This document shows, in pieces, positions 7,562-12,185 of a stretch of DNA of 64,000 nucleotides; the first letter of the stretch is position 1; each line of letters starts with the position of its first letter. Under the pieces are notes generated by a model that saw nothing but the letters and a program-made list of their open reading frames with translations, was not told the origin of the DNA and searched no databases. Where the stretch lies: positions 1 through 64,000 of the IMG/VR virus record IMGVR_UViG_3300036770_004343; one strand, given 5' to 3'. The stretch is from an uncultured virus (IMG/VR IMGVR_UViG_3300036770_004343) (taxonomy: Duplodnaviria; Heunggongvirae; Uroviricota; Caudoviricetes). A program made the position numbers and the translations under genes.

Positions 7562-7641
7562 TGGAGCGGTGTCTCGGACTTATTTATTCACCGGCCTTCT
7601 CACTGGAATGTGAACGTGCTCCTCATAGACACTAACACCGC
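7562..7641 (-). tRNA. Aberrant tRNA-Gly-like (UCC in a 6-nt loop; non-canonical T arm)
   Basis: GCGGTGT/ACACCGC acceptor + U73 + CCA; TTCAC-ATTCCA-GTGAG; no TTC T-loop. Confidence 0.6.
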
Positions 7642-7649
7642 ATTAAAAT

Positions 7650-7722
7650 TGGAGCGGGTCCGAACTTTGCATTTCGCCTTTTAGTCTGGTAGACTAACGT
7701 GCTCTCTTTACACTTGACCCGC
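7650..7722 (-). tRNA. Aberrant tRNA-Gly-like (ACC anticodon)
   Basis: GCGGGTC/GACCCGC acceptor + U73 + CCA; TTAGT-CTACCAG-ACTAA; D-loop lacks GG; 4-bp T stem CGAA/TTCG. Confidence 0.65.
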
Positions 7723-7732
7723 ATCTTAAATC

Positions 7733-8035
7733 AAAATAGGAAGGACTAATGATTACCTCCAAGTTTCAGAATCACGACTGGTTATTCATCCACAGTCCAC
7801 ACGGTTAATTACTCCTTGTGTTAATGACTGATGGGATTTGTTTTTCCCACAACGGGCTACGATTTATCATTTATATTTTAGCTACGATCCCGATACGCTC
7901 AAATTCAAGGTTGTACGACCTCAAATTCTCCATAGATTTACCCTCCATAACTCTTACTCCAACCAATATACAACGTTTTTCAACGCCATATATTGTGCGT
8001 TACAACTAAACTAATCGTTGTTCCGCCACTATCTT
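7733..8035 (-). ncRNA. Candidate ~300-nt structured ncRNA, family unassigned
   Basis: Ends pair (AAGATAG/CTATTTT); internal helices CAATATAT/GTATATTG with a GAAA tetraloop, TTTGAGGT/ACCTTGAA, TGGGA/TCCCA, GACTG/CAGTC, TGATT/AATCA; lies within the tRNA transcript. Confidence 0.6.
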
Positions 8036-8038
8036 AAA

Positions 8039-8051
8039 TTGTTAAAGAACT
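8039..8051 (-). promoter_or_regulatory. boxA-like antitermination element
   Basis: AGTTCTTTAACAA versus rrn boxA TGCTCTTTAACA. Confidence 0.55.
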
Positions 8052-8052
8052 A

Positions 8053-8186
8053 TTGAAAAAGTTGATGGGACTTGAACCCACATACATAACGTCTATTTGT
8101 AGTTATATCGTTAATCGGCGGTTTTCCCCGTGTCTACAACTTTGGGTACCGACCTCCTGCTACGCCATTCGCTACAACCTTCTCAA
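8053..8186 (-). ncRNA. tRNA-like RNA with the anticodon arm replaced by a ~75-nt insert
   Basis: 12-bp terminal stem, TA linker, D-loop with GG, GTGGG-TTCAAGT-CCCAT T arm; no encoded CCA. Confidence 0.65.
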
Positions 8187-8194
8187 TTGAAAAA

Positions 8195-8472
8195 TGGTAG
8201 GCGTGAGTGGATTCGAACCACCGCTTTACAGATTTTCGTACCACTATAATTTTCATTACACATTTCTGTTTTGTGGTCTGGACTTTCTCTTCATCATAAC
8301 ATTTCTGTTTTAGATGTTTGCCGTTAAGTCTCTACACCTTCTCATTTCTGAGCTTGGCTCGGGATTGGCAGTTAAGCTTTCCCCGAATTTGACAAATTCT
8401 ACTTTAGAGATTTCTCTCTAAGCACTCAATTTACGCTAAAGTCTGTTGACTCTTCCGCTGGTCTACACGCCC
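8195..8472 (-). tRNA. tRNA-Leu (UAA), intron-containing (exons 8439-8472 and 8195-8236), short variable loop
   Basis: GGGCGTG/CACGCCT acceptor, spliced loop ACAGA-CTT^AAAA-TCTGT, TTCGAAT T-loop, CCA. Confidence 0.85.
8237..8438 (-). ncRNA. Group I intron (IC3-like, ~202 nt, no ORF) in the tRNA-Leu(UAA) anticodon
   Basis: P1 ACTT/GAGT with U.G at the splice site; core AAATTCGGGGAA, AATCCCGAG, GTAGAGACT, AAGAGAAAGTCC; terminal omega-G. Confidence 0.9.
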
Positions 8473-8513: not shown

Positions 8514-8541
8514 ATCTTACCACATCTTACTTACTTGTCAA
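8514..8541 (-). promoter_or_regulatory. sigma70-type promoter
   Basis: TTGACA-N16-TAAGAT with TG extended -10. Confidence 0.7.
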
Positions 8542-8655: not shown

Positions 8656-8749
8656 TGGTGGTTCCGCCCGGATTCGAACCGAGACCGTGCTCAAATCTAG
8701 AGCTTATCAACGTTATAAGCGTTGCGTTCTACCGTTAAACTACGGAACC
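8656..8749 (-). tRNA. tRNA-Ile (UAU) with a long variable arm
   Basis: GGTTCCG/CGGAACC, CAACG-CTTATAA-CGTTG, 24-nt variable region with GCTC-TAGATTT-GAGC hairpin, CCA. Confidence 0.85.
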
Positions 8750-8841: not shown

Positions 8842-8854
8842 TTGTTAAAGAACT
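8842..8854 (-). promoter_or_regulatory. boxA-like element
   Basis: AGTTCTTTAACAA just downstream of a promoter. Confidence 0.55.
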
Positions 8855-8865
8855 AACTAAAAATT

Positions 8866-8893
8866 ATCTTATCACACATTGATGTTTTGTCAA
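8866..8893 (-). promoter_or_regulatory. sigma70-type promoter
   Basis: TTGACA-N16-TAAGAT. Confidence 0.7.
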
Positions 8894-9069: not shown

Positions 9070-9146
9070 TGGTTGCTGAAGCGTAGGAATCGCACCTACT
9101 TAATGAGTGGTTATGAGCCACCCCCAGATCTAACCTGCCGCCAGCT
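9070..9146 (-). tRNA. Aberrant CAU-anticodon tRNA-like gene (initiator-like 1:72 mismatch)
   Basis: GGGTGG-CTCATAA-CCACTC 6-bp anticodon stem, GTAGG-TGCGATT-CCTAC, bulged acceptor, CCA. Confidence 0.6.
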
Positions 9147-9156
9147 ATTAAATTGT

Positions 9157-9288
9157 GTTGGTTTCGATAATACACGGAGGTTTATTTCAACGAACTAGCG
9201 TTTTTTATTGACTCACAATTATCATTTTTTTCTCAGGTTTGTACGCTTTTCAGCGTTCCATCAATCTGATACTCTATTTTCCACCAAC
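9157..9288 (-). ncRNA. Candidate ~130-nt structured RNA
   Basis: GTTGGT/ACCAAC closing stem, ACGCT-GAAA-AGCGT, TCAG/CTGA, TGATAAT/ATTATCG. Confidence 0.45.
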
Positions 9289-9362
9289 TAAAATTATCAA
9301 AAGAACAAATTAAAAATTGTGTTGGGTGTGTTTATTGAATACTCTATCCACCCAACAAACAG

Positions 9363-9391
9363 AGTATACCATACGCTAACCCCGCAACCAA
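9363..9391 (-). promoter_or_regulatory. Extended -10 promoter
   Basis: TTGGTT-N17-TATACT with TG. Confidence 0.5.
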
Positions 9392-9487
9392 GAAGTTTTT
9401 TAAGAGATCTTCCATACTCTAGGGGTGTTATGGTTTAACGCCCTCCACCAATCAGTTTTATCTTCTGGATAACTGATCAACCAGTAA

Positions 9488-11642: not shown

Positions 11643-12185
11643 TTAGTTGTTATCAATAAAGTTACGATAAAATCCCATCACAATTCCACTGGTAGTACCC
11701 ACATTAAGTGAACGTACACTACCATACGCAGGAATGGTTACAATATAATCAGCATTGTCAAGAATATAATCACTCAACCCACTCTTTTCTTCACCAAAGA
11801 CAAACATTGGCTTATCTACACCAGTAAATACCCAGTGGTTAAAAATAGATACAGTCTTGTCACTATACTTGGGAATGTTGTTTTCTACTGCAATTAGTGT
11901 ATAACCATTGTCATTCACATACGCAACAAAGTCTTGTTCTGTCTTGATGTGACTAAGATCGGTGTAATGATGAGTGCCAACAGTACCACGGCGATCCCAC
12001 TGCTTACTACCACCAACATACATTGCTTCCTTGAAGCCAAAGAAGTTGGCGTTGCGTACTAGAGTGGATAGATTAAAGTCACCGTTAACGTGCATCATAG
12101 CAACACCAGCGTCAATACAGGTGTCCTTACAATACGACTTGATATCGTCCACACTCTTGTTCTTCAGATGATCCAAAACATTCAT
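11643..12185 (-). CDS. SpoU/TrmH-family (SPOUT) RNA 2'-O-methyltransferase
   Basis: NLSTLVRNA, VFGEEKSGLS, IPAYGSVRSLNV. Confidence 0.88.
   Translation of the reverse strand: MNVLDHLKNKSVDDIKSYCKDTCIDAGVAMMHVNGDFNLSTLVRNANFFGFKEAMYVGGSKQWDRRGTVGTHHYTDLSHIKTEQDFVAYVNDNGYTLIAVENNIPKYSDKTVSIFNHWVFTGVDKPMFVFGEEKSGLSDYILDNADYIVTIPAYGSVRSLNVGTTSGIVMGFYRNFIDNN

Follow-up and report, generated by a model that had tools for sequence, protein, structure and literature searches.

To our knowledge, RNA C and RNA D of bacteriophage T4 have been without a known function since the 1970s. Both are encoded at the end of the T4 tRNA operon, where rnaC is 139 nt long and rnaD is 119 nt. In their passages on these RNAs, three papers describe the roles as unknown (PMC3014915, PMC9697503, PMC12685909), and one of them reports confirmation of both by Northern blot (PMC9697503). 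Non-decoding RNAs with tRNA shape also include YrlA, a bacterial Y RNA and partner of Ro60/Rsr which, in the sections of PMC4201824 that deal with it, mimics the T arm, D arm and acceptor stem of tRNA. The same sections state that, in M. smegmatis, RNase P cleaves YrlA and CCA is added to it (PMC4201824).

Here, we describe a 134-nt tRNA-shaped element in the window, by which we mean the whole stretch of 64,000 nt of phage DNA that was analysed. Judged by architecture and position, its closest known counterpart is T4 RNA C, without demonstrable homology. Like RNA C (species 1 RNA), the element is a non-tRNA RNA gene of a T4-type phage, co-oriented with, and at the end of, a tRNA operon. Sizes are similar (139 nt for rnaC versus 134 nt here). 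In both, the strand that comes after a canonical T arm pairs with sequence further upstream, and there is no anticodon arm. The interiors differ; that of rnaC is a long hairpin plus a second hairpin, whereas the element has a hairpin (H), a second helix (C) and conserved loops. A further difference is that the element is a presence/absence cassette. Comparison of the element with 50,697 phage records, using blastn, returned T-arm matches only. Similarly, a model built on nine element sequences (R1) scored 19.9 bits on the 3' 100 nt of T4 rnaC, which is less than the 26.4 bits scored on an ordinary tRNA-Ile.

Results

The element occupies a tRNA operon

The window has a G+C content of 33% and contains T4-type genes for replication and the baseplate, encoding a gp43-type polymerase, clamp loader and hub-lysozyme. 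The source is a T4-like freshwater (lake) phage. Its tRNA cluster spans about 10011 to 7476 of the minus strand. ARAGORN identifies 7 tRNAs here and an eighth is interrupted by an intron. No ORF of at least 80 aa was found between 7520 and 8852, and the short ORFs over the element do not exceed 45 aa. The relevant part of the operon, in the direction of transcription, is as follows.

8514 to 8541, minus strand: promoter-like sequence, TTGACA-16-TAAGAT (with a TG extension and 10 of 12 matches; sites of this type are also present at 8893 and 9706)
8195 to 8472, minus strand: tRNA(UAA) with a 202-nt group I intron (8237-8438), upstream neighbour of the element
8053 to 8186, minus strand: the whole tRNA-shaped element, 134 nt
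7733 to 8040, minus strand: structured noncoding RNA of about 308 nt, downstream neighbour of the element

The promoter-like site at 8541-8514 is the likely start of the operon containing the element. Between this site and the 308-nt RNA, no other promoter-like site was found in the window. The intron of tRNA(UAA) is matched by Rfam (8256-8448, 74.8 bits). Intronless alleles of this tRNA are present in relatives L082 and L097, and read ACAGACTTAAAATCTGT; joints 8236->8439 in RNA runs agree. Following the rules for group I introns (a U preceding the 5' splice site and a G as the last intron base), the anticodon is UAA, not the GAA given by ARAGORN. Note that the intron-bearing tRNA(UAA) has a short variable arm; other relatives have a class II tRNA-Leu(UAA) at that site.

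A tRNA-like frame without an anticodon arm

Below, the element is numbered on the minus strand, reading from 8186 to 8053 (idx = 8187 - position). Hence, idx 1 is 8186 and idx 134 is 8053. The parts of its frame are listed here.

8175 to 8186, minus strand: closing (acceptor-like) stem, 5' strand, idx 1-12, UUGAGAAGGUUG
8162 to 8174, minus strand: U8 A9 (8174-8173) and a small D-like hairpin, GCG-AAUGG-CGU (8172-8162)
8065 to 8081, minus strand: canonical T arm, GUGGG-UUCAAGU-CCCAU, with 5 pairs, 100% paired in 9/9 sequences
8053 to 8064, minus strand: closing stem, 3' strand, idx 123-134, CAACUUUUUCAA, invariant and without CCA

A preliminary description of this DNA had proposed such a frame, comprising a 12-bp acceptor-like stem, U8A9, a D-loop with GG and a canonical T arm, and each part is present on the minus strand. 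Chance does not account for the frame, which has the orientation of 8 tRNA genes and recurs in 9 distinct sequences, from 11 contigs, that are the alignment set used throughout. The same description noted the absence of both an anticodon loop and an encoded CCA. Reading the minus strand bears this out. There is no 7-nt anticodon loop across the insert of ~80 nt and no CCA, which ends 8/8 of the ordinary tRNAs that ARAGORN draws in the cluster.

The closing stem, formed by UUGAGAAGGUUG (8186-8175) and CAACUUUUUCAA (8064-8053), has 12 bp, or 13 bp if A8187-U8052 is counted. Across the 9 distinct sequences, 95.4% of cells in the 12 pairs are paired. The 5' strand is the most variable part of the element (GAGAAGG / GAAUAAG / GAAUGAG / GAAAAAG). 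Pair 6:129, corresponding to tRNA position 1:72, is unpaired in 5/9 variants, with a U-U mismatch. Because the closing stem continues for 5-6 pairs past a 7-bp acceptor, both leader and trailer are base-paired. Given this, the frequent U-U at 1:72 and the lack of CCA, tRNA-style maturation of the element by RNase P and RNase Z seems doubtful.

The D stem is weak (92.6% paired), with C16-G24 broken in 2/9 sequences, L076 and L098. The GG at idx 21-22, equivalent to G18 G19, is invariant in the 9-sequence alignment; variant L076 has a GG->AC change together with the D-stem break. The T loop retains U54, U55, C56 and A58 across copies, and reads UUCGAAU in L098. The whole-molecule fold has an energy of -34.3 kcal/mol and a z-score of -1.62, equalled by 12 of 200 shuffles. 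Recognition of the AlaRS type relies on G3-U70 as an identity rule. Only 3/9 variants have G3-U70, which is not conserved, and AlaRS-type identity was rejected.

Known RNA families do not account for the element

We compared the element with the families that it most resembles. With Rfam model RF00005, positions 8053-8186 gave no match at E up to 10, and ARAGORN called nothing at the element with default settings. Only with a lowered threshold (-ps90) was a tRNA forced, 'Asn(att)', with a 32-nt intron and a long variable arm. With respect to canonical tRNA, the T arm and GG are present; a 5-bp/7-nt anticodon arm with U33 cannot be drawn. Intron-bearing tRNA genes are similar in that a tRNA frame is interrupted mid-way, and the element adjoins a true group I intron tRNA(UAA). 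A tRNA with an intron was rejected, since no pair of exons restores an anticodon arm and the ARAGORN intron option was empty at the default threshold. Similarly, Rfam found no group I intron match on the element at E up to 10. A group I intron remnant was also discarded; the best local alignment to the neighbouring intron scored 16, compared with a shuffle mean of 16.0, and 55% of shuffles scored as high. The preliminary description had likewise held the element to be too short for a group I intron.

The tRNA-like domain of tmRNA shares an acceptor, a T arm and a reduced D region with the element and, in tmRNA, pseudoknots replace the anticodon arm. Rfam, at E up to 10, detected only a 15-nt T-loop fragment of the tmRNA model, with 9.2 bits against a gathering score of 47. 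Both tmRNA and mini-tmRNA were excluded. The element is far too short, has no tag reading frame and no CCA, and ARAGORN finds no tmRNA. These searches agree with the preliminary description, which had set tmRNA aside.

In YrlA, as outlined in the sections cited above, the RNA ends form a Ro-binding stem and the tRNA-like part is internal, whereas the ends of the element form the acceptor-like stem. The topologies therefore differ and, in line with the preliminary description, the element is not permuted like YrlA. The Y RNA motif GNCGAAN0-1G is only near-matched in the element (AGCGAAUG). No TROVE/Ro60 protein was found among the 69 window ORFs scanned (22 + 47), and there was no Rfam match to a Y RNA on the element. 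On these grounds of topology, motif, protein and Rfam search, a Y RNA was rejected.

The insert is the most conserved part

Pattern scans of IMG/VR for the element recovered six contigs at most, five of which had already come from the first three scans. Scans with 15-mers gave 41 and 15 stretches, of which the homologous ones came from five contigs only. A metagenome scan found 5 loci, all of them close variants. The most distant copy, in L098, was located via a motif of the neighbouring 308-nt RNA, and other relatives were located via the neighbouring virion protein. In bacterial genome contigs, the sole pattern match was a chance one, within coding sequence, and the element itself was in none of these genomes. 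Model R1 detected no paralogues in the complete records of 3 related phages (a set without L088 and L086), and none in 18 sources; the remaining matches were ordinary tRNAs and other tRNA-like genes.

The nearest record, G001, has a copy of the element that is 100% identical to that in the window. For close variants, identity of the element is 95.6-98%, no higher than that of the flanks (94-96%). L098 is the only divergent homologue and matches the window element at 117/135 positions (87%). For the same pair of phages, the neighbouring structured RNA is identical at 251/311 positions. The differences in L098 cause zero breaks in the T stem or closing stem. Changes to the element are concentrated in its 5' third, and its longest stretches without any change fall in the insert (idx 39-56, and idx 73-87 with 90-101). 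The insert is thus the most conserved part of the element, which supports the earlier suggestion that it does not result from random decay. An unconserved insert, named beforehand as the observation that would point to decay, was not what we found, since the longest invariant blocks sit within it.

These observations bear on a neutral explanation, whereby the element is a decayed tRNA gene with a junk-replaced anticodon region, which illegitimate recombination placed in the spacer and which is still to be lost. Lack of CCA and anticodon is consistent with such a passenger. So too are the close variants, where identity merely equals that of the flanks, the gathering of changes in the 5' third, with the D stem and one proposed interior helix (A, below) broken, and the modest z-score of -1.62. 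However, decay should leave the insert least conserved and it is most conserved. In addition, the element of L098 is better conserved (117/135) than the adjacent structured RNA (251/311), and has kept both T arm and closing stem unbroken. Two further arguments against a passenger, compensatory changes and a second genomic context, are described in the following sections.

The interior is predicted to fold around hairpin H and helix C

The preliminary description viewed the element as a tRNA-mimic carrier, matured by RNase P/Z, that displays an H-type pseudoknot. In this model, helix A (33-38/69-74, GGUCGG/CCGAUU) and helix B (48-53/85-90, UUGUAG/CUACAA) cross, and a CGG-GGAAAA-CCG hairpin separates them. 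The window sequence permits each of the three helices, and helix B is 100% compatible in the 9 sequences, with two one-sided changes and zero compensatory ones. However, when the 80-nt insert was shuffled 2000 times with its dinucleotides kept, a crossing helix pair of at least 6 bp arose in 13.3% of cases. Furthermore, helix A has 4 unpaired cells, in 3/6 of its pairs, in L076 and L098 (2/9 variants). Shifting helix A (33-38/66-70) gives one compensatory pair and two breaks. No pair in the original helix model is changed on both sides.

Features that better describe the interior are the following.

8131 to 8148, minus strand: invariant block, UACCCAAAGUUGUAGACA, idx 39-56, in 9/9 sequences; includes UUGUAG, the 5' strand of helix B (8134-8139)
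8116 to 8130, minus strand: hairpin H, CGGGG-AAAAC-CGCCG, idx 57-71, pairs 57-61/67-71
8087 to 8113, minus strand: helix C, UAACG/CGUUA, idx 74-78 with 96-100, 5 pairs, all unvarying

The hairpin originally proposed can be drawn; its register, CGG/CCG (57-59/66-68), is preserved solely via wobble pairs. By comparison, hairpin H in L098 has C57-G71 changed to U-A and G61-C67 changed to A-U. These four differences make two compensatory pairs, which favour the register 57-61/67-71. Note that both come from one sequence, since L098 is the sole divergent homologue. Hairpin H uses nucleotides of the helix A 3' strand and so excludes helix A. It is, by this comparison, the best-supported internal helix. 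Helix C takes the place of an anticodon stem. Its loop, of 17 nt, includes the 3' strand of helix B, CUACAA (8097-8102). In L098, helix C is extended by a sixth pair. Putative anticodon positions in the 17-nt loop differ among copies.

An alternative fold, derived using RNAalifold and our own pair count, and picked after viewing the data, combines hairpin H, helix C and a helix 24-28/47-51; 98.5% of cells pair, and the score of the model is reached by 4/500 column shuffles. Helix 24-28/47-51 is weak and mutually exclusive with helix B. Our modelling thus indicates that the interior of the element is folded. A long-range pairing of UUGUAG with CUACAA, between two invariant blocks, is possible. 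It would cross 74-78/96-100 and so form a pseudoknot unlike that first proposed. Conversely, the crossing of helices A and B was not upheld. The frequency of such crossings in shuffles, the breaks in helix A, and compensation that consumes its 3' strand, all count against the carrier model, as do the paired leader and trailer and the missing CCA. Hence, we regard this model as very improbable.

Filled and empty sites occur in related phages

We examined how the element is joined to its surroundings. A direct repeat is present at its ends.

8186 to 8194, minus strand: upstream copy of the direct repeat, TTTTTCAAT (9 bp), the spacer after the CCA of tRNA(UAA)
8052 to 8060, minus strand: downstream copy, TTTTTCAAT, part of the element; also in L098 despite another flank

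A precise empty site, in L068, reads CCATTTTTCAATAGTTC. In context, this site is tRNA(UAA)-CCA-TTTTTCAAT-AGTTCTTTAACAATTTAAGAT, and L070-L073 are equivalent. Compared with the empty site, the window has 134 bp inserted, with TTTTTCAAT on either side. Of 18 IMG/VR loci with the 308-nt RNA, 6 carry the element, 11 are without it and 1 is deleted there. Both forms are found in a single run of lake-water DNA (X5), where a contig covering 8024-8178 has a depth of 43 and a joint 8055->8190, equivalent to a 134-base skip, has a depth of 24.6. Because this joint occurs in DNA, splicing of the 134 nt can be ruled out, and the same skip in an RNA-run contig is an allele. In RNA-run contigs X15, X16 and X17, positions 8048-8155 are almost uncovered; these populations have empty sites, so have no bearing on expression of the element. 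X15 bridges the empty site, and a loose end of X16 reads the empty-site spacer.

The tRNA upstream of the element varies among carriers. It may be the intron-bearing class I tRNA(UAA), another type of class I tRNA(UAA), a class II tRNA-Leu(UAA), one further type or, in L098, tRNA-Lys. L098 thus provides a second context, where the element comes after tRNA-Lys, and where a different sequence and then its own promoter come next. An empty site for this type of context is present in L090. Since the L098 copy still ends in TTTTTCAAT, although its flank differs, the closing stem has a 3' strand that is part of the element itself. The arrangement in the window is best explained, from the repeats, by insertion via recombination at a spacer that matches the end of the element. 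In L081 (IMG/VR contig ..32319_000568) there is a further insert, of ~180 nt, between element and 308-nt RNA and within direct repeats of TTTTCAATAGTTCTTTAA. The ~180-nt insert is a second cassette at the same place, which is a hot spot for their exchange.

The element is dispensable, as many related phages live without a copy. Dispensability, and presence/absence polymorphism, would be expected of a neutral passenger. Against this, the element occurs in two independent contexts and, in L098, has two compensatory pairs. Taken with the conservation described above, we consider the neutral explanation rather unlikely, though a contender to be taken seriously.

A structured RNA of 308 nt follows the element

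In every copy for which the 3' flank was read (window, IMG/VR contigs and metagenome loci) the 308-nt RNA is downstream of the element. It is found directly after a leader, past the ~180-nt insert, or past a promoter. Folding of 13 distinct homologues, using RNAalifold, gave 81 pairs, 11 of which have compensatory changes, and the 5' and 3' ends pair together. The RNA has no Rfam match. In riverine RNA runs X15 and X17, contigs of the 308-nt RNA have k-mer depths of 10^3 to 10^4, compared with 1-75 on neighbouring parts, although k-mer depth is a poor measure and comes from empty-site populations. Joints going back from 8038/8040 to 7733, with depths of 26, 29 and 469, suggest circular RNA or a tandem copy. 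The RNA is flanked at both ends by ATTTAAGAT.

Three copies of a motif, TAGTTCTTT(A/G)(A/T)AA..ATTT, are found on the minus strand, near 8850, 8490 and 8045. They are immediately 5' of tRNA-Met, tRNA(UAA) and the 308-nt RNA, respectively. The copies at tRNA-Met and tRNA(UAA) are downstream of TTGACA-16-TAAGAT promoters. The motif is probably a leader or processing signal, and it also appears to be the homology where cassettes are exchanged.

The constant presence of the 308-nt RNA raises an alternative in which the element has no role in trans. Instead, it would punctuate the transcript in cis, as a module for processing or 3'-end formation, either setting the tRNA part apart from the 308-nt RNA or terminating the tRNA transcript. 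Consistent with this, the element in L098 is the last before a fresh promoter, and the spacer common after tRNAs is also, here, the 3' strand of the closing stem. A terminator-like score was obtained for the T arm with CAACUUUUUC, but the count of such sequences is 2, compared with a shuffle mean of 2.1. Moreover, the upstream tRNA alone suffices in empty-site phages. In the window, no promoter-like site separates element and 308-nt RNA, so termination at the element would have to be leaky. The invariant internal loops are also left unexplained. We therefore think a purely cis-acting role improbable.

Other unusual RNA genes are nearby

Two tRNA-like genes, at 7650-7722 and 7562-7641 (both minus strand), end in U-CCA and have acceptor stems beginning G1-C2-G3. 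Their anticodon-like loops are CUACCAG and AUUCCA, and their D and T loops are non-canonical, without GG and without UUC. Both genes were missed by ARAGORN and Rfam. The anticodon stem of the 7650-7722 gene covaries in L070 (UUAGU/ACUAA to CUGGU/AUCAG). From their identity elements, the two genes resemble aberrant glycine-type tRNAs.

The gene for 'tRNA-Ile(tat)' (8656-8749, minus strand) is 94 nt long and has a long variable arm. This class II shape is unusual for an Ile anticodon. The gene is conserved in relatives with two paralogues (L070 11336-11428 and 12196-12289), for which the variable-arm stems differ in a compensating manner, GCUC/GAGC versus CCC/GGG. In L093 (1424-1533) and L069 (1186-1305), tRNA(CAU) is like its intronless counterpart in L068 and L070 except for a hairpin of ~35 nt inserted in the anticodon loop. 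The hairpin may be a small intron-like insert or, alternatively, the gene may be disabled.

Within a 650-nt gap between tRNA-Glu and tRNA-Met, noncoding sequence at about 9210-9425 (minus strand) is highly similar, by eye, in the window and the L098 lineage. A weak tRNA-Sec-like match is present at 9075-9145 (17.3 bits versus a gathering score of 47). Finally, a gene for a SpoU-family RNA 2'-O-methyltransferase (11643-12185, minus strand, 82 bits) shares the strand of the tRNA cluster and is located 1.6 kb upstream of it. The enzyme may modify phage tRNAs or tRNA-like RNAs.

Discussion

We tentatively favour the view that the element is a gene for a tRNA-derived non-decoding RNA, able to move as a cassette and housed, in this T4-like freshwater phage, by the tRNA operon, although we give this not quite half of our credence. 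According to this model, the promoter at 8541-8514 would drive production of one precursor containing tRNA(UAA), the element and the 308-nt RNA. By analogy with T4 RNA C, the last gene of the T4 tRNA operon, the element may then be released as a stable RNA of about 125-135 nt. Its interior would fold as hairpin H and helix C, and the loop sequences UUGUAG and CUACAA may pair mutually. Spread of the element could occur by recombination at the repeated spacer plus leader motif, TTTTTCAAT-AGTTCTTTAACAA. Our guess is that the RNA would act in trans, as a decoy or sponge, by displaying its tRNA elbow and stem to some factor of host or phage that binds tRNA.

A bolder version of this model is that the element is a horizontally mobile and selectively maintained anticodon-less RNA of tRNA shape, in which UUGUAG (8139-8134) and CUACAA (8102-8097) pair to rebuild a compact tRNA-like core. 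In trans, such an RNA might be a decoy or inhibitor of a host factor that recognizes the tRNA elbow and acceptor, for instance a tRNA-targeting defence nuclease, or else a partner of the ~308-nt RNA. We view this version as a long shot.

The element is real and discrete, tRNA-derived, and of a kind known since T4 and never explained. It is unrelated in sequence to T4 RNA C, yet is similarly placed and tRNA-shaped. If the element is only a remnant, then the finding is ordinary. Filled and empty sites, in otherwise near-identical phages, and both in one lake sample, provide a natural comparison for the function of such RNAs. More broadly, the element shows the tRNA clusters of T4-like phages to be built from cassettes, swapped at a repeated spacer plus leader motif. 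Should the element prove to be a decoy in trans, or a partner of the 308-nt RNA, the RNA C class of RNAs from phage tRNA operons would gain a first function that can be tested.
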